64,000 nucleotides of DNA from a virus (IMGVR_UViG_2695420859_000012), one strand, 5' to 3'; shown: positions 4,306 through 39,000, numbered from the stretch's first letter. Made by a program: numbers and translations. The notes: generated by a model not told the origin, from the letters alone.

Positions 4306-5294
4306 TACCTTTCGAATGGAAGAACATACACTTCAAGGTCTTCAAGGAACGAACGGAAATTCAGCTCGTAGCACAGTTGCTCGAATGCTTTCACGTCACG
4401 ATTGCCTTTGATTGTTTCGATTTCGGTAGGCGGAAACTTCGTCTCAATCAGGTTCATTAGCGTGATGTTTCTCTTGAACGCTTCGAGCATTCGACAGCCT
4501 GTTTTCTCGTTGAAGGCATTCTTCGCTAGTTTGTTGAAGGCGGTCTTATGGCGTCCTTTGTCAACCACGATTGAGCCGTCGTTGATGCCGCGTACCATCG
4601 TTGCGACACTTCCCCATTCATGCAGCAGCTCTTTCGCACCGCCAGCACCAATGCCACCAACACCGCTAATGTTGTCCGATTTATCGCCTTGTAATGCTTT
4701 TGCTTCCAAAAATGCGCGAGGAGTAGCGAATCCTGTCAGCTCCGCAAATTGCTCAAAATTAACCTGCTTGTTTTTGGCGTCTTCACGCAGGCTTACCCAG
4801 CTTACGTTTTCACGAACTAACTGAAGCCAGTCGCTATCGCCTGTTAACAGATAGATGTGTTCAACGGTTGGCTGCGGTGCCATGCGGGATACCAGCAGCC
4901 CGGCCAGATCATCCGCTTCTGCATCTTTTGCAATGAGTTGGGTAACTCCAAGCGCGGTCATCATTTTGAGGATGTATGGCTTCTGGATAGCAAAGCCTTC
5001 CTTCATCTTTTTCATATCAGGATCGTCGTCGCGATTTGCTTTGTAGTCCGGGTAAAAGTCGCGACGCTTGTCACTAAATCCATCCCAAAGAATCATAGGT
5101 CGGGCATGGAGGATGGAGGCATAACGACGGACGTTCTTAACAAAGCCGAAAGCAGCCTGTACTTCCATTTCGCCGTTGTGCAATTTGTCAGATTGTTGGT
5201 GGTAATAACCCAGGCTATTGCCATCTACGAAGAGATAATTCACCGGTACATTCCTTCCAAAAAGTAAGGCGTCCGTAGACGCCTTACTGGTCAC
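4299..5294 (-). CDS. 5'-3' exonuclease / flap endonuclease (FEN, RNase H-like)
   Basis: AKDAEADDLAG acidic motif and H3TH-like GDKSDNISGVGGIGAGGAKELL. Confidence 0.75.
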   Translation of the reverse strand: MTSKASTDALLFGRNVPVNYLFVDGNSLGYYHQQSDKLHNGEMEVQAAFGFVKNVRRYASILHARPMILWDGFSDKRRDFYPDYKANRDDDPDMKKMKEGFAIQKPYILKMMTALGVTQLIAKDAEADDLAGLLVSRMAPQPTVEHIYLLTGDSDWLQLVRENVSWVSLREDAKNKQVNFEQFAELTGFATPRAFLEAKALQGDKSDNISGVGGIGAGGAKELLHEWGSVATMVRGINDGSIVVDKGRHKTAFNKLAKNAFNEKTGCRMLEAFKRNITLMNLIETKFPPTEIETIKGNRDVKAFEQLCYELNFRSFLEDLEVYVLPFERYC

Positions 5295-29963: not shown

Positions 29964-30731
29964 ATGGACGATTTATCGGTATACGCGAGATCATTGGATA
30001 AGGCTAAATACTATGTTTACTGTCTCTATGATACAGAAGACAAGATGAAAAGACCGTTTTACATAGGAAAAGGCAAATCGACTCGTTGTCTCGATCACAT
30101 CAAGTATCCCGATGACTCTCCCAAATCCATGCGGATCAAAGAACTTTTGGCTAATAAAAAATTAGGCATAGATATACTTCGTCATGGTATGGATGAAACC
30201 ACAGCCAAACTTGTTGAGGCGACATGCATCGACCTTATGGGGGTCGGAGAGCTTACGAATAAGGTACGAGGAAGTGGTTCCATGATGGGCAGAATATCAC
30301 TGGACGCCTACCATCACTTAGTGCTGCAAGAGGAAACTGAAATTGCTCCTGAGCACGCCGGTCTTGCCTTCCTGCTAAACAGCACCTACAAGTCAGGAAT
30401 GTCCGCTCTGGCATTATATGAGGCTACGCGTGGCGTATGGGCAAAGGTTCCAAGAGACGAGAATCTCAAATATGCCTACGCTACATATGGTGGGCTGATA
30501 ATGGAAGTTTATCAGATTGAATGCTGGGTCAAAGCCGGTTCTCAGCAGTACTTTACAAGGGATATAGCTCTTGGCCCCGACACAAAACGTTATGAATTTG
30601 TTGGCAGAATAGCCGATGAGCATATTAGAAAACTGTATGTAGGCAAATTAATCAAGAAGCCACCAAGCTACGGTAGCCCTTTTGTGAAGGTTGGGGTGGT
30701 TAGGACTGAACATAGTGTTAGCGCGGCATAA
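29964..30731 (+). CDS. GIY-YIG nuclease-domain protein (possible free-standing homing endonuclease or cargo nuclease)
   Basis: N-terminal YYVYCLYD...PFYIGKGKSTR; about 150-aa unknown C-terminal region. Confidence 0.6.
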   Translation: MDDLSVYARSLDKAKYYVYCLYDTEDKMKRPFYIGKGKSTRCLDHIKYPDDSPKSMRIKELLANKKLGIDILRHGMDETTAKLVEATCIDLMGVGELTNKVRGSGSMMGRISLDAYHHLVLQEETEIAPEHAGLAFLLNSTYKSGMSALALYEATRGVWAKVPRDENLKYAYATYGGLIMEVYQIECWVKAGSQQYFTRDIALGPDTKRYEFVGRIADEHIRKLYVGKLIKKPPSYGSPFVKVGVVRTEHSVSAA

Positions 30732-30786: not shown

Positions 30787-31143
30787 ACCTTTCTTCATCA
30801 ACTCTCGTTTGATTTCATCGGTACGCATCGTGACATCGGCAGCGGTGATCGCCTCATTCAATTTCACGATGTCCTCGATTTCCTGCGGTGACTTCTCTGC
30901 CAGATGGAAAATGGCTGCTCGAATCACGTCAGAACGAGTGAACTTCTCGAAGCGAGGGATGAACTTCATCATCTCCAGCAGTTCGAAGTATTCGTCCTCC
31001 AGTGACATTGTGCGGCTTTTAATTTTCTCTTTGCCACGAGTCGGGCGTCCCTGTGGTCTGACTGGTTGGCGCAAAGGAGTTGTGTTCTTAGCCGGTGCAT
31101 CAGGCTCTTTGCGCTTTGCTAGGTCACCCATTTTCATGGACAT
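30784..31143 (-). CDS. Small partition-operon partner protein (ParG/ParB-like)
   Basis: Immediately downstream of parA (ATGA overlap); basic N-terminal tail. Confidence 0.5.
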   Translation of the reverse strand: MSMKMGDLAKRKEPDAPAKNTTPLRQPVRPQGRPTRGKEKIKSRTMSLEDEYFELLEMMKFIPRFEKFTRSDVIRAAIFHLAEKSPQEIEDIVKLNEAITAADVTMRTDEIKRELMKKG

Positions 31144-31811
31144 TATTCTTCTTCCTCCAGACTCAACAGATAATCTACAAATTCTTCAAACTCGGCTTCC
31201 GCCTTTTTGTCGCGCTCGCTACCGGTCATTTCAAAGATAGAACGACCAGACTCTTCCGCATCATCATAGACGTTGCGGTTATATAGATTGACTGGCGCAG
31301 ACTCGATGCCAAACGTCTCAACAATCTCTTTAGCCGCCAGAATGCGAGACACTTGTGATGGCAAAGCCGGGCACTGGTTCATGACCGCGCGGACCTTCAC
31401 TTTATCGTTTACATTACGAACATTGTCGATAATAGGATCGATGTCACGCAGAGATTTCAAATCACGACGCTTAGGACGAAGCGGGATAATGATAACGTCG
31501 GCCATCAGCATCGCTTGTCGCTGAATTTCGGAGTCAAAGCCACCAGCATCTACCACTACATACTCAGCTCTACCCTGAAGCGATTTTAGGTGCTTAATGA
31601 TGTCATCCTGAACGTATGCAAAAGGAATCAGCTCAAGGTCTTCGTTCTGTCGACGGTCTTCACACCAGCTCGTTGTCGTGCGCTGAATATCTATATCGGT
31701 GATATAAACCTTCTTCTTCTTTTTGACTTTCAGGCAAACGGCAATTTGCTGGGCAACGGTGGATTTGCCAGGCCCGCCCTTTGTGCCGCCAACCACAAAG
31801 ATCTTGGTCAT
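31143..31811 (-). CDS. parA: ParA/ParF-family partition ATPase
   Basis: Deviant Walker A GGTKGGPGKST; 222 aa. Confidence 0.85.
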   Translation of the reverse strand: MTKIFVVGGTKGGPGKSTVAQQIAVCLKVKKKKKVYITDIDIQRTTTSWCEDRRQNEDLELIPFAYVQDDIIKHLKSLQGRAEYVVVDAGGFDSEIQRQAMLMADVIIIPLRPKRRDLKSLRDIDPIIDNVRNVNDKVKVRAVMNQCPALPSQVSRILAAKEIVETFGIESAPVNLYNRNVYDDAEESGRSIFEMTGSERDKKAEAEFEEFVDYLLSLEEEE

Positions 31812-32740: not shown

Positions 32741-33108
32741 TTTGTAGCAGAATCATCAGCCTTAACCGTGCTGACAATGCTACCATGATTGCGTAAGAAG
32801 CGGCGAATAGAATGTTCAATAACCTCCGAAAAAGCCTCGATAAAACGAGACAGCTCAGGGTACTGTTTAGCTGGCTTGACTACAAAACGAACACGACCAT
32901 TCAGGTAAATTGCTTCAGCTAATGGCTTCACGCTTGCACCAGCGCGCTCAACATCGTCTTTGAAGGTAACGATGAAGCGTGAGTCTTCCGGTTCAATAGC
33001 GTCATTATTGAGCTTACGTACTTCAAGCTTGTGCTGATTCAGCACATGAGTCTCGATAATACTCGTGCAATCGCGAATAGTTTGTATAGAACGTTTCTCG
33101 TTCAGCAT
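32725..33108 (-). CDS. Hypothetical protein
   Basis: 127-aa ORF. Confidence 0.4.
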   Translation of the reverse strand: MLNEKRSIQTIRDCTSIIETHVLNQHKLEVRKLNNDAIEPEDSRFIVTFKDDVERAGASVKPLAEAIYLNGRVRFVVKPAKQYPELSRFIEAFSEVIEHSIRRFLRNHGSIVSTVKADDSATKWLLH

Positions 33109-33332
33109 GTGTCCACCTTAGCCGTTAACACAAGTGTCATTGCGGCACCCCTCTCGGGGTTGAAGGCTACGAGGATGCGTAGCCTGTATGTGCCCACTTA
33201 CGTGGATGCCTAATAAATCTACATCAAATTACTAAATGATTCAACATGAGCTTGAGTGAACAGGCGTGTATATGAGTGAAGATGCCATCTTTAGGATAAA
33301 AGGTAAACTGAGACCACTCATCAATCATCGAC

Positions 33333-33560
33333 TCAGTTCAGGTGCCCCCACTCACACAACCTTTCACCTATCGTATTGTGGATAAGCAACTGTCGCTCCG
33401 TTTCCTCAGTCATAAAATCCTCTCTACTCACATAAATAGGATTTGCAGCATCGCAGAATAGCACGCCTGGAGCCTGCGTCTTAATCACGCACCCATTTAT
33501 CAAACAGCTCGCGATGAACACCAGAGGCATCTTTTTGCCGCACTTCATTAACCGTTTCAT
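33333..33560 (-). CDS. Outer-membrane spanin (Rz1-like lipoprotein), overlapping the i-spanin gene
   Basis: Frame overlapping 33481..33732; internal start MKRLMKCGKKMPLVFIASC with lipobox IASC; start choice approximate. Confidence 0.45.
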   Translation of the reverse strand: MKRLMKCGKKMPLVFIASCLINGCVIKTQAPGVLFCDAANPIYVSREDFMTEETERQLLIHNTIGERLCEWGHLN

Positions 33561-33732
33561 TTTTGACATCCACTGTGCTTTGAAGTCGTTTTCTGTCTTC
33601 CTGTTTTGCCTTCTCTTCCATTGCTCGTCGCGCCGCATTTCCGCCCATCGTGTAAGCGCCGACAAGAACGAAAAGAACGGCAGCCAGCGTAATCAAAGCA
33701 ACTTTTAGCTTTGTCATCAGGCTGCCTAGCAT
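33481..33732 (-). CDS. Inner-membrane spanin (Rz-like)
   Basis: 83 aa; N-terminal TM helix then charged segment. Confidence 0.5.
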   Translation of the reverse strand: MLGSLMTKLKVALITLAAVLFVLVGAYTMGGNAARRAMEEKAKQEDRKRLQSTVDVKNETVNEVRQKDASGVHRELFDKWVRD

Positions 33733-33733
33733 A

Positions 33734-34453
33734 TTAGACCATCCCTTTCTGGTGTTTTCTTACCTGCGACCAGGCAATGAATCCTGCCACAACAATAGTG
33801 GCAATACCGAAGATGATGCGTACTGTATCCCCGCTAGAGATATGACCTTGTGCTTTATCCATAGCAGCGGAAACCTGCGGCATAACATCGGCAAGCTGCG
33901 CCAGACCAATACCTGCTGTGACAGTTGCGCCTGCGGTTTCTTTAGTTACAGGAACAGCCTTCACGGTTTTCACCGGCTTAACGACGCCGGCTCGACGCAG
34001 ACCTTCCTCAATAACTTCTGCCGCATACCAGGTGTTCAGCGTTTTTAGTGGACCTCGACCATTCTCGTGGCGAATGATTGCCTCAACCAAAGGTCGAAGG
34101 ATGTCGTAATCATGCAGATCGATGATCATGTCTGCGGTTACACCAACGGCTTTAGACACCTCATTAATGTAGGCGTCAGTGTTGTTTTCATTCGGCGGTG
34201 CCCAACGTTCAATAACTTCACGAATGGTATCGATACTTGAGCCGTCTTTTGCGCGACGTTTGTCGTGGTAGGTAATTAGAGTCACCGCCAGCGCACGAAT
34301 CCCCCAAACAGGGTCTTTAAACGTGCAAAAGCGCGGTTCGTCTGGATTCGCAACCAGACCTTGCCACGGTGATCCTTTATCAAGATTACCGGGGTTATTA
34401 TTACGAATGCCTCTCGGAGTCTTCATCCTTGATCTCCTGTTATTGCAGTCCAT
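33734..34453 (-). CDS. Putative endolysin with C-terminal hydrophobic segment
   Basis: Assigned by position between holin-like and spanin genes; enzymatic family not identified by eye. Confidence 0.45.
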   Translation of the reverse strand: MDCNNRRSRMKTPRGIRNNNPGNLDKGSPWQGLVANPDEPRFCTFKDPVWGIRALAVTLITYHDKRRAKDGSSIDTIREVIERWAPPNENNTDAYINEVSKAVGVTADMIIDLHDYDILRPLVEAIIRHENGRGPLKTLNTWYAAEVIEEGLRRAGVVKPVKTVKAVPVTKETAGATVTAGIGLAQLADVMPQVSAAMDKAQGHISSGDTVRIIFGIATIVVAGFIAWSQVRKHQKGMV

Positions 34454-34763
34454 TTTTTACGCCATACGCGGCTAACCCCAAAAGCAGTGCAGTAATAATG
34501 AACGACGTTATTTTAGAAACAATGCCGCCAAAGAACCCACTGGAGATGGAATCTAACCGGTTAAGGAGTTTGTCCAGATTGGAGTGTTGAATACTATGTT
34601 GCGCCGGGGTCATATCACCAAAGTAGGTTTTCAGCTGATCATTGACCTCCTGGCCAATTTCTTCACGTAGCTCTTTACCTAATTTGCCAACAACCTCCCG
34701 AGCAACGATCGCGGCAATACGCTCAACTTGCTCTGTTGTAACGCTCGCCATCTCGTTCGACAT
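34440..34763 (-). CDS. Holin-like membrane protein
   Basis: Start re-called at M5 behind GGAGG (track 34440..34775); C-terminal TM ITSFIITALLLGLAAYGV. Confidence 0.45.
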   Translation of the reverse strand: MSNEMASVTTEQVERIAAIVAREVVGKLGKELREEIGQEVNDQLKTYFGDMTPAQHSIQHSNLDKLLNRLDSISSGFFGGIVSKITSFIITALLLGLAAYGVKNGLQ

Positions 34764-34844
34764 GTTTTCCTCCATGAAAAGTCAAATCGGGATGGCGGAT
34801 TTATATCACATTTCACCCTTTTATTGTAGGTGTGTACCTACCTA

Positions 34845-35078
34845 TCATTCAGCATTGCAACGGACTGATGAGAAAGCACCTACTCCTACCCATCGCCAGT
34901 TATAGATACTACCCGCTTTGTATAAGGTATAGTCGTTCACTTTTTTAACAGCATATATGGGTATGACTGTCTCCTGTCCACCAATGATAGCCTCACCGTA
35001 ACATATAGGTGTCGGCAATTTCTGGCAGCCAGTAAGAGAGAGAACAACAGCTATTATTAGAAATAATCTTTTCATCAT
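34845..35078 (-). CDS. Small lipoprotein next to tail-fibre genes (candidate superinfection-exclusion lipoprotein)
   Basis: 77 aa; lipobox LTGC. Confidence 0.45.
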   Translation of the reverse strand: MMKRLFLIIAVVLSLTGCQKLPTPICYGEAIIGGQETVIPIYAVKKVNDYTLYKAGSIYNWRWVGVGAFSSVRCNAE

Positions 35079-35085
35079 TTACTCA

Positions 35086-35694
35086 TCAGTTATACAGATT
35101 TCTATTTATTACCGGTACTCTGCCATTTACGCTAAAACTATGGCCGCCATTAAGTTGGTTTACGAATATCGAGCTAACAGTATTTCCATATGCCGCATAT
35201 CCATAAACCATTGTCATGGCTCCGCCCGGTACTGGAACAGCGAACACATTCGCATATGTTGGGATTATCGCTGGTGGGTAATCAAAAACATGCCCTCCAG
35301 AGCTGTTCCACTCCGTATTATTAAGAAAGGTAAATGAAAGTGGGATATTTGCCGTATTATAGATTTCCTCCCCTTGTGCATTGAAAAAACTCATGCCCCA
35401 AGTTTCTTTTTTGGCTATACCTTTCGAAAATACGTATATCGTGGCACTAGAGTCGCTACCCTGACCTCCGAAACTGTAAATCACCTGGTTGTTACGCACT
35501 ATTCTGTTGGCTATTAATGAAACAGCTTTCGAATAGGCAACAAAAATCATCGGTGAACGATCTGGAGATATTTGGGTGTTAAACTCTGTCCCGCCGGACA
35601 AAGAAACAACCTGCTTTCTCTGAAAAACGATAGGAGACAAAGAAGGAGACATCCAGACCTTCCCGTCAGATCGATATATCTTGCTTCCGTACAT
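35086..35694 (-). CDS. Hypothetical tail-fibre-associated protein
   Basis: 202 aa; translationally coupled to upstream ORF (TAATG); Gly/Ser/Asn-rich. Confidence 0.4.
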   Translation of the reverse strand: MYGSKIYRSDGKVWMSPSLSPIVFQRKQVVSLSGGTEFNTQISPDRSPMIFVAYSKAVSLIANRIVRNNQVIYSFGGQGSDSSATIYVFSKGIAKKETWGMSFFNAQGEEIYNTANIPLSFTFLNNTEWNSSGGHVFDYPPAIIPTYANVFAVPVPGGAMTMVYGYAAYGNTVSSIFVNQLNGGHSFSVNGRVPVINRNLYN

Positions 35695-35948
35695 TATTTT
35701 TGAAAAACCAATATGTTTAAATTACCACTAGCTCCAGACCACGAAATGGTATTTCCAGAAACCGTAAGACTTGTGTATTTTCCATTGGTTACGTCCATTA
35801 TGTAATAGTCGATTCCCAATCCCGCCTCAACCTCATATGTTCTACTTCCTGAACCAGAGGGAGTAAAATAATCGAGGTAATAAACAGGGGCCAACGCATC
35901 GACCATCTCCTGTCTTGATGGCGACCAAACCTGTGCACCATAGCTCAT
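35694..35948 (-). CDS. Hypothetical tail-fibre-associated protein
   Basis: 84 aa immediately downstream of tail-fibre gene. Confidence 0.4.
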   Translation of the reverse strand: MSYGAQVWSPSRQEMVDALAPVYYLDYFTPSGSGSRTYEVEAGLGIDYYIMDVTNGKYTSLTVSGNTISWSGASGNLNILVFQK

Positions 35949-36008
35949 AAATATATCCTTATACTTTTAAGCAGGGGCTGGTTTAGTTCCAGCCCCGATT
36001 GAAGTTGT

Positions 36009-39000
36009 TTATTCTTTAGGTGAATTTAACTTCGTTTCAAGCTCCTCAACCCTTTTGGTCAATTGCTGAATATGATGAATGAGTGGTACAACCAAACGCT
36101 CATACATCACTCCTTCAGCGACCATACCATTTGAGGAAATATCTTCTGGAGAATCATTATTTGTTGGTTCACGCCAATGGACATATTGCGGGGCAATCTC
36201 ACCAACCTCTTCAGCAATAAGGCCGTAATACCCCCAATCCTTTCGGTCACCTCGACAAATTGAACGATACCAAACAGGTCTTAATGACAAAAGTTCATCA
36301 GCATATCGATCTTGTAATGTTTCAATATCCTTTTTATAGCGCCTTGAAGAGGTTGAACGCCAAACTGTATTGATACCTGGGTTTGGATCAATGTACATAT
36401 TGGCACCGCTAGTAGTTGTGCCAATATCCCATATAGCAAACCCTCCACTACCGCCTGATTTGACAACCAGTGTTTCAGCAATAATATCCAGGTTGCCACT
36501 ATAGCCTGTCAGTGATGATCTGCTTGCATAGGAACTTAGAAGGTTTGTTACCTCTGTTTTCGTGTAAGCATTAAGGTTAGCCGCAGTCAAAGTTATATCG
36601 GCAGAGCCATCAAACGCCACACCAGCAATTTTCCTTGCTGTCTGCAATTTTGTGGCGGTTGCGGCATTACCAGTAGTGTTCTGATTACCAGTTGTATTCA
36701 CACCAGGGATTGAATCCTTAGCGGTATATACCTGCGCCCACGCTGACCATGCCGCACCTGTGTTATCTCTTCGTGAGCGAATGAAAACTGGCGCATGTGC
36801 ACCGCTCGTACCACTCCAGCCAATAAGCAACTCTCCCTCACCAGCAGCACTCGCACCTTTCATGTGCAATACGTTGCCATACATGGTCGGGTAGCTATTG
36901 TTGTACGCCTCGTACATTTGAATGCCAGCAGTGCCTTGAGTAGAGCCGCTTAACGCCGTAACTCGGCCACGAGATACCAATGTATTAATGTTGATATCGC
37001 CTGAGCCATCAAACTTAACACCATTGATGTTTCTCGCTGTTTGCAACTTCGTAGCTGTTGAAGCATTACCGTTCAAACTACCATTTACGCCACCAGTCAC
37101 ATTTAGTCCATTACCAATTGATACAGCACCGCTGGTATTATTAATTGTAATAGGTCGCAAACCGTTCCATGAACCTAATGTGTCTCCTGATGCTGTTAGC
37201 ATGAAATATGTGTTCGATCCATCATTACGGATAAAGAACCCAAAGCTACCGTAAGCAATGCGGAAACCATTTGCATATTTTGAAATGATCTCGCCAGAAG
37301 ATGTCAAACCTCCAGATAATGTACCACCGGTAAGAGGTAATGCACCGACATCAGAGGCTGTTGGTTTGTTTTTCGTGTTATATACTCTTCGCCATCCCGG
37401 AGAATAATCTGTGCCATTAAATACATAGATAAACTCCGCATTAGTGAGAGCACCAGAGACACTCGTCGTTGTGGCCGTTGTTATACGGATCGTATAATTG
37501 TTTGAGCTACTACCGTTATTAAATACCTCTATAACAGCTCCTGCCAATGGAATAACGCCACAACCAGTTTCACTATTTGGTATGGTTGCACTATTGGCAT
37601 AGGCCCACGCACATCGAGCAATCCATGACTTTGTGTTAAATGCTCCATTATTTTGCAATAACGTCACTAACTGTGCTGTTGTTATTGCTCCGCCATTACT
37701 TCCTGTAGTTAACCAACCAGTAGGAGATGCCGGGCAACCTATATTTGCTGGCGACAAGGAAATATTTGCCGAGCCGTCAAACGACACCCCATTGATAGTA
37801 CGCGCAGTCTGCAACTTCGTAGCAGTAGCCGCGTTGCCCGTTGTATTCTGATTACCAGTCGTATTAACACCTGGCAAATTAATATTCGCAGTACCATCAA
37901 AGCTCACGCCGCCGATAGTTCTTGCCGTCTGAAGTTTTGTAGCAGTTGCAGCATTACCAGTGGTGTTCTGATTACCCGTAGTATTTACACCTGGAAGGTT
38001 GATATTTGCAGAACCGTCGAAACCAACTCCACCGATAGATCTTGCCGTCTGCAATTTCGTTGCTGTACTTGCATTACCATTTAATGTTCCGGTGATCCCA
38101 CCAGTAACAGACAACGGACCTGAAACTGTTCCTCCGGTTGTTGGCAGTGCTCCAATATCTAACGGCGTCGGTTTCTGATGTGTGCTATACATCGTATAAA
38201 CAACACCATCGGTAACGCTGGAAGGCTTACTAGCTGAATATGTTGGCGATGTATAAATAGAAACTGTCGCATTTGCAGTACAATCCCAATGGATATTTAC
38301 ACGAGTCGCATAATTGCCAATCTCAACGTAAATATCATATGTATCGCCGGATGTGTTGATCCAGGCGAAATTCGTTAATCCGACAGCTGTACGCTTCCAC
38401 AAAGCACCTGTAATCCCTTTGGGGTTTCCATTGCCTGCTCGTAGAACCAGTTCTGAAATGCCTGCCTGATGTGGGGAGCCGACGTTGTAACCAGCGCCAC
38501 CAATCAATGCGATGTAAACGATGGAACTCGCTTGTGGCATGGTAACCGTAGCCAGTTTGAACCACCCTGCCCCGCCAGAGAAAGACATCGTTACTGAATT
38601 TAAAGTACCAATATCTTTCGGCGTTAATGTGATATCCGCAGTCAGTGCTTTACCGTTAACTTTTCGGTTAGATGGCACCCTGCTATTCGCATTGTCATTG
38701 GCTGCTTTAACTGCTTTTGGCGTTGCGGCCAGCGATTCACTGGTGCTGTCGACAGCACTGCTAAGTTTCACAACACCTTTAGTTGTAAGGCTTGCGTCTT
38801 CCATCGCAACTGCACCGGCAATCTCTTCAGCACGATCAGCAGCAGCTTCCGCACGGGTCGCAGCGGATTCAGCAGCAGTTTTGCTCTGAGATGCTGCCGT
38901 CGCACTGCCTGCCGCCTCTGTTGCTTTCGTGGATGCCGTCGTGGCGCTGCCCTTCGCTGCTGACGCCTGTCTGGTCGCCTCATCTTTTGAAGCAGACGCA

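Follow-up and report, generated by a model that had tools for sequence, protein, structure and literature searches.

According to the KanT1 paper (PMC13164509, citing Wietzorrek 2006), T1, HK022, N15, ES18 and phi80, all of which depend on FhuA, have next to their tail genes a cassette made up of a small gene, a gene for a protein of about 200 amino acids and cor, with the gene order conserved. In the BASEL collection all ten phages that carry the full trio use FhuA, and Cor-like proteins have also been noted in BtuB-using phages (KanT1 paper, PMC13164509). The KanT1 authors assumed that the two proteins encoded together with Cor are accessory factors that help Cor in superinfection exclusion (PMC13164509). 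In a study from 2025, the two proteins, named there the small “Ig-like” protein and the “hand-like” protein, were modelled and proposed as hitherto undetected receptor-binding proteins that dock on a J protein lacking an Ig-like tip, and BamA was given as the receptor of the Stx-phage homologues (PMC12309495). The terminal receptor can be predicted from the genes adjoining gpJ (BASEL; 2026 preprint), and the BASEL Warwickvirus Bas04 uses BtuB. The receptor-binding protein of Oekolampad (Bas18), which recognises LptD, has been solved on LptDE together with the exclusion lipoprotein Rtp45 (PDB 9rpt; bioRxiv 10.1101/2025.07.07.663478). In T5, the gene of pb5, which binds FhuA as receptor, is paired with that of Llp, a small lipoprotein of the outer membrane by which the receptor is inactivated on its periplasmic side. 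SSU5 is reported to depend on the LPS core via its fibre adhesin gp22, and the account of SSU5 cited in PMC12312913 names no outer-membrane protein receptor. The retrieved passages of the T1 tail-tip cryo-EM paper mention neither protein of the pair, and nothing useful was found in the literature on SSU5-like receptors and PhiR41_1.

The locus considered here lies in a 64,000-nucleotide stretch of viral DNA (IMGVR_UViG_2695420859_000012; the window, meaning this whole stretch), which is an SSU5-like phage-plasmid of Escherichia coli. Its lysis genes share 94.6% identity with Escherichia phage Cyrano and 83% with Salmonella phage SSU5. For the trio, the J tip and the large terminase, the identity to plasmid pM160133_p3 (NZ_CP022167.1) is 100% in each case. 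The trio comprises an 84-aa ORF, a 202-aa ORF and a 77-aa lipoprotein gene (Table 1), and is likely to be a “cor cassette” that combines host recognition with self-exclusion, that is, a tail-tip receptor-binding locus. Compared with the locus that follows gpJ in Drexlerviridae, Dhillonvirus and lambdoid phages, which encodes an “Ig-like” protein of ~11 kDa and a “hand-like” protein of ~21 kDa, the window has the same families, the same order, the same overlapping or abutting genes and the same type of J C-terminus. However, the window and SSU5 differ from that locus by a side-fibre gene between J and the pair, the window proteins are only 20–31% identical to homologues with known receptors, and in sister elements such as Cyrano the pair is found at a distant locus.

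Table 1. Genes and elements of the cor cassette and its neighbourhood in the window, listed in the direction of the minus strand.
Feature	Position	Strand	Family and remarks
Central tail fibre/tip protein J, ~1576 aa	40259-44989	-	upstream of the side-fibre gene; presumed docking partner of the pair
Side tail fibre, 1385 aa	36009-40166	-	Pfam Gp34_trimer and Peptidase_S74; C-terminal intramolecular chaperone
Stem-loop	35974-35996	-	perfect 8-bp GC-rich stem, GGGGCTGG-N7-CCAGCCCC, between the fibre stop codon and the 84-aa gene
84-aa ORF	35694-35948	-	phrog_557 (1.3e-24); ribosome-binding site AAGGA, 8 nt ahead of the ATG
202-aa ORF, all-beta	35086-35694	-	phrog_425 (4.5e-49)
cor, 77-aa lipoprotein precursor	34845-35078	-	NCBIfam NF047972, phrog_1119
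Holin-like, 111 aa, C-terminal membrane segment	34440-34775	-	
Endolysin, 239 aa, hydrophobic C-terminus	33734-34453	-	phrog_873
Rz/Rz1-type spanins	33333-33732	-	Rz-like i-spanin and overlapping Rz1-like ORF with LINGC lipobox

All genes of the trio, the fibre and the J region are encoded on the minus strand. The three ORFs of the trio are real genes and not chance ORFs, since they have strong family matches, show abundant synonymous differences to their SSU5 orthologues (28 of 54 codon differences in the 84-aa gene and 87 of 138 in the 202-aa gene) and are all annotated by RefSeq/PGAP in the identical plasmid NZ_CP022167.1. In the PGAP annotation the middle gene begins 14 codons further in and encodes 188 aa, and the SSU5 RefSeq record likewise has the late start; the longer version of 202 aa is to be preferred, because the family alignment conserves its N-terminus (M1, G3, G11 and P17). 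The ATG of the 202-aa gene overlaps the stop codon of the 84-aa gene (TAATG), which makes translational coupling of the two plausible, and cor (N-terminus of the protein, MMKRLFLIIAVVLSLTGC) starts 7 nt past the 202-aa stop codon. The original prediction had described a tail fibre followed by coupled 84-aa and 202-aa ORFs; the ORFs and their overlap are as described, but the coupling does not extend to the fibre gene, which is separated from the 84-aa ORF by a spacer of 60 nt that contains a strong hairpin. This hairpin has a fold energy of -18.4 kcal/mol (z -3.9 versus shuffled sequences), is not followed by a U-tract and was not called a terminator by a consensus scan. It may mark a module or recombination boundary, or serve as an RNA-stability or attenuating element. 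Within the fibre protein several near-identical internal repeats are seen (…NTTGNQNTTGNAATATKLQTAR…G(V/I)…FDG(S/T)ANI…), its N-terminal region is long, Ala/Ser-rich and of low complexity, and the protein annotated by PGAP is shorter than the full ORF by 128 codons at the start. A complete lysis cassette (33333-34775, minus strand) is located directly downstream of cor, and the spacer between cor and the holin gene holds an extended -10-like sequence, TGATATAAA.

The 77-aa protein is almost certainly Cor. It scores 81.2 bits (cutoff 31) against the NCBIfam equivalog NF047972, “phage exclusion lipoprotein Cor,” in a match that spans residues 2-75 of the protein and positions 1-77 of the 78 profile positions, and it matches phrog_1119 with an E-value of 9.2e-31 (107 bits). 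The identity is 58–61% to Cor of SSU5, 54–57% to Cor of Stx2 phage 86 and 47–49% to Cor of HK022, and in the alignment with these three proteins the lipobox Cys18, C26, C74 and the stretch N60-W61-R62-W63-V64 are invariant. Thus, the lipoprotein with its LTGC lipobox was correctly recognised in the original prediction, and its likeness to receptor-blocking superinfection-exclusion lipoproteins is borne out by the family assignment. The signal peptide, MMKRLFLIIAVVLSLTG, is followed by Cys18 of the lipobox with Gln, not Asp, at the +2 position, leaving a mature protein of ~60 aa; the hydropathy maximum falls in the N-terminal segment, and Pfam LPAM_1 matches at 16.8 bits, which is under its cutoff of 20. 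According to the Lol sorting rule, the residue at +2 of a lipoprotein sets its membrane destination, and Cor is therefore predicted to reside in the outer membrane. Cor of phi80, N15, HK022, mEp167 and T1 has the same 77 aa, the lipobox, the Cys pair and the NWRWV motif, and occupies the same place at the end of a cassette of a small gene, a gene for ~200 aa and cor beside tail genes. The window Cor differs from these in being carried by an SSU5-like phage-plasmid, and not by a lambdoid or T1-like phage. By analogy with the characterised members, it would exclude FhuA-dependent phages and impair FhuA function. No match was found when the three proteins of the trio were compared with the PADLOC defence-system models, and a promoter and terminator scan gave nothing above shuffled expectation, including no promoter that would explain expression of Cor from the prophage.

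A parallel to Llp of T5 had also been drawn in the original prediction, and it holds at the level of function but not of sequence. Cor can be regarded as a functional counterpart of Llp and possibly as a fold analogue, given a fold similarity between Cor and Llp with a TM of 0.69 (KanT1 paper, PMC13164509). By contrast, a phmmer search of Cor against all PDB chains, among which the FhuA:Llp complex 8A60 is presumed to be, returned no match at E<=1, T5 Llp included, so that no sequence relative is detectable. As in T5, a putative receptor-binding protein would be encoded next to a small outer-membrane lipoprotein, yet pb5 is a single large protein, whereas the receptor-binding protein of the window would be a pair.

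The 84-aa and 202-aa proteins form a previously known, but uncharacterised pair. The homologues of the pair in HK022 and Cyrano fall into phrog_557 and phrog_425 as well. The PHROG labels of these families, “outer membrane protein” for phrog_557 and “membrane associated protein” for phrog_425, are unsupported, because the window proteins have no signal peptide or hydrophobic segment: no signal peptide, lipobox or membrane segment was found in either of them (maximum KD(19) of 0.54 and 1.24, respectively), and phrog_557 is mislabelled. Searches against Pfam and NCBIfam gave no significant match for either protein, PDB sequence searches with single sequences and profiles returned nothing for any protein of the trio, and a profile of 99 family members had no relevant match to the PDB at E<=10. 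Starting from the single sequence of the 202-aa protein only five close relatives were retrieved, and the wider homologue search was seeded with an alignment of the HK022, tonijn, Stx2-86 and SSU5 homologues. The structure of the 202-aa protein, the prediction of which had been suggested originally, was modelled with moderate confidence (pLDDT 72.6). The model shares its fold with the receptor-binding protein of Oekolampad (PDB 9rpt chain C), a solved phage receptor-binding protein, to which the 202-aa protein has no detectable sequence similarity in the PDB profile search; the receptor of Oekolampad is LptD, and its exclusion lipoprotein Rtp45 is not a member of the Cor family as far as tested. 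The AlphaFold2 model of the 84-aa protein is a small beta-sandwich (pLDDT 82.8) without a strong match in the PDB, and the published likeness to an Ig-like domain of lambda gpJ was not reproduced. HHalign places the 84-aa family on residues 1-89 of the 202-aa family with a probability of 90% (E 1.5e-6), which makes the smaller protein paralogous to the N-terminal domain of its larger neighbour.

Based on these comparisons, a receptor-binding role of the pair is likely, with the 202-aa protein as the probable receptor-binding protein of the central tail tip and the 84-aa protein as a probable tail-tip adaptor or accessory protein. Of the two roles offered in the original prediction, fibre assembly or adhesion, the latter is favoured because of the fold match to a solved receptor-binding protein, the literature on the receptor-binding locus and the constant pairing with J-type tail tips. 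Indeed, the C-terminus of the window J protein reads ...NVLRVRIGLL, and a C-terminus of the type ...LRVxIG is present in the J protein preceding the pair in HK022, tonijn, Stx2-86 and the IMG/VR lambdoid loci. A role of the pair for the adjoining 1385-aa side fibre, as assembly chaperones or as a distal adhesin, is very improbable. The pair genes do follow the fibre gene immediately in the window, where they are separated from J by this 4.2-kb gene, but the fibre has an intramolecular chaperone domain of its own (Peptidase_S74), and neither protein matched the tail-fibre assembly families (Tfa, gp38-like) in Pfam, NCBIfam or PHROGs. Furthermore, HK022, T1-like and Stx phages have the pair behind J and not behind a side fibre, SSU5 has the fibre gene and the pair kept apart by a separate fibre adhesin gene, and in Cyrano the pair is located 55 kb from the fibre. 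Since the pair follows J or sits 55 kb from the tail genes in other phages, J is its likely partner, and fibre assembly is disfavoured by the same distribution and by the chaperone domain of the fibre.

Eighteen loci were scanned with family HMMs, and in every one of them the two genes abut, with the small gene coming first. The order small gene, large gene and cor, as in the window, is found in SSU5 and in HK022, where the cassette directly follows J and is unannotated. The pair occurs without an adjacent Cor in the T1-like phage tonijn and in Stx2 phage 86, in which the pair is gp27/28 and cor lies ~3 kb upstream beside another tail-fibre adhesin gene. Any Cor is missing in Cyrano and in seven IMG/VR lambdoid loci. 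At these loci without Cor, that of Stx2-86 among them, the pair most often comes directly after J; only ten loci were confirmed in the IMG/VR search, the confirmation having used a divergent first sequence. In tonijn, a Warwickvirus, the pair is preceded by gp18 (4446-4727 of the tonijn sequence compared), a 91-aa lipoprotein with an LTGC lipobox and two further Cys. It is a very distant member of the Cor family (34 bits to phrog_1119) and, together with the use of BtuB by the related BASEL phage Bas04, points to a Cor superfamily directed at several receptors. The distribution of the pair bears on the assumption of the KanT1 authors that the two proteins are host-cell accessory factors that aid exclusion by Cor and are not virion proteins. 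This is an improbable explanation: as constant neighbours of cor in FhuA-dependent phages (PMC13164509) the two proteins would be well placed for it, but they are present without any Cor in Cyrano and the seven lambdoid loci and at the pair locus of Stx2-86, they carry no signal peptide, lipobox or membrane segment that would support a location in the envelope, and the fold matches that of a solved receptor-binding protein.

The relationship between J and the pair can be followed by comparison with Cyrano, whose J protein is 99% identical to that of the window over the aligned 1253 C-terminal residues. Reading from the fibre gene, similarity to Cyrano is lost at 36985 and returns at 34846, one base after the cor stop codon. 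The exchanged block (34847-36984 of the window) consists of the C-terminal tip of the fibre and the trio, and includes the C-terminal ~325 codons of the fibre gene (36009-36984) with the Peptidase_S74 domain. This joint exchange of fibre tip and trio is the second observation that speaks for a link between the pair and the side fibre. In Cyrano there is nothing between the fibre and holin genes. It had been considered that J might be shorter, and lack a C-terminal receptor domain, where the trio is present; this does not hold, as the window J of ~1576 aa is 99% identical to J of Cyrano, which has no trio, over these 1253 residues. Cyrano carries a pair ~55 kb away (CYRAN_88/89, OV696614.1 81933-82831), between a DUF4942 gene and TciA/TciB-like genes. 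It has 62–63% identity to the pair of Stx2-86 and is not accompanied by Cor. At the corresponding site (~93526-93668), pM160133_p3 has a clean deletion of ~1 kb. A homologue of the 202-aa protein is encoded by 241 plasmids in PLSDB, of which 233 carry the pair in a single copy and eight carry it twice. One pair per genome, a constant J and alternative alleles are what would be expected of a tail-tip adhesin module, and are hard to reconcile with a role of the pair as helper of Cor.

In the preferred reading, the pair would be soluble all-beta proteins that are made late together with the tail genes and become part of the virion, mounted on the distal end of a J protein that would itself have no receptor-binding domain. 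The 202-aa protein would act as adhesin for an outer-membrane protein of the host, and the 84-aa protein, as a copy of the N-terminal domain of the adhesin, would be an adaptor or a co-receptor-binding subunit. By analogy with the systems described above, Cor may bind to the periplasmic face of the same receptor, rendering it unusable for adsorption or DNA entry, and would thereby protect the lysogen or the infected cell from its own phage and from other phages that use that receptor, as well as stop progeny from being wasted on debris.

As to the identity of the receptor, FhuA is the leading candidate, in which we place slightly better than even confidence. This assignment is based mainly on Cor, because the 202-aa protein is only 20–24% identical to the homologues of HK022 (FhuA) and the Stx phages (BamA) and is closest, outside the SSU5 group, to Warwickvirus proteins (~31%). 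The reported dependence of SSU5 on the LPS core likewise weighs against certainty. Cor is a strong member of a family whose characterised members act on FhuA, and the literature ties the full trio to the use of FhuA, which are grounds that make FhuA likely. Alternatively, the pair and Cor could target another outer-membrane protein, for example BtuB or another TonB-dependent transporter. The family of receptor-binding proteins has diversified between FhuA phages (HK022, Teewinot), Stx phages using BamA and the BtuB-using Warwickvirus Bas04, and the proximity of the 202-aa protein to Warwickvirus proteins (31%), the distant Cor-like lipoprotein that accompanies the pair in the Warwickvirus tonijn and the Cor-like proteins of BtuB-using phages (KanT1 paper, PMC13164509) point in this direction. 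However, the window Cor is a strong, full-length member of its family, with 107 bits compared with 34 bits for the Warwickvirus lipoprotein, it retains all signature residues at 47–49% identity to HK022 Cor, and every BASEL phage with a complete trio uses FhuA (PMC13164509), so that a receptor other than FhuA is rather unlikely.

A wider proposal, which is possible but falls short of an even chance, has two parts. SSU5-like phage-plasmids of E. coli might keep J constant and change their terminal receptor by swapping a single tail-tip receptor-binding pair at either of two loci, one linked to Cor beside the lysis genes and one with a Stx-like pair without Cor ~55 kb away, such that acquisition of the allele linked to Cor would at once direct the phage to a new receptor and make the lysogen immune. 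Separately, the FhuA-, BamA-, BtuB- and LptD-specific receptor-binding proteins of small siphophages, which are now described as unrelated families, might form one ancient fold superfamily, the small partner having arisen by duplication of the N-terminal docking domain. The finding itself is real but ordinary, as cor is already annotated in RefSeq and the cassette is known from the literature for many phages; the fold link to an LptD-binding protein, the paralogy within the pair and the two alternative loci in SSU5-like elements are modestly new and of low stakes. The fold link and the paralogy lend modest new support to the still unproven view that the pair represents the missing receptor-binding proteins of T1-, phi80- and HK022-type phages.

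By megablast no match to the trio was found in phages, where only the adjoining lysis genes matched; the trio is too diverged for this method, and searches at the protein level were required. At an identity of at least 95%, the trio is present in about 70–80 PLSDB plasmids and in 74 complete RefSeq E. coli genomes, and is always plasmid-borne. Dozens of E. coli plasmids have the gene annotated as cor by PGAP/RefSeq. A large terminase of the SSU5 type occurs in 982 plasmids, but the phrog_557/phrog_425 pair in only 241. The numbers of plasmids with the terminase and with the pair are 213 and 186 in Escherichia and Shigella, 89 and 40 in Enterobacter, 50 and 6 in Salmonella, 342 and 0 in Klebsiella, and 62 and 0 in Yersinia, respectively. 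SSU5-like elements thus have several tail-tip solutions, of which the pair is one. The cassette suggests that a widespread family of E. coli phage-plasmids probably uses an outer-membrane protein, likely FhuA, as terminal receptor, and that lysogens may be protected against FhuA-dependent phages such as T1, T5 and phi80. Such protection would be relevant to phage-therapy cocktails and to predictions of the host range of phage-plasmids, and the value of the present analysis lies in annotation and prediction.

Elsewhere in the window, a 255-aa ORF (29964-30731, plus strand) shows in its N-terminal part a motif like that of GIY-YIG nucleases (YYVYCLYD…PFYIGKGK) and adjoins the ParA partition region (31143-31811); in the flank of this ORF the match to SSU5 is only partial, with 73.7% identity over 118 bp (33073-33178 of the window). 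Some of these phage-plasmids carry resistance genes. Outside the window, pM160133_p3 also contains dfrA51 (100918-101394), the gene of a trimethoprim-resistant dihydrofolate reductase, which has previously been described in phage-plasmids.
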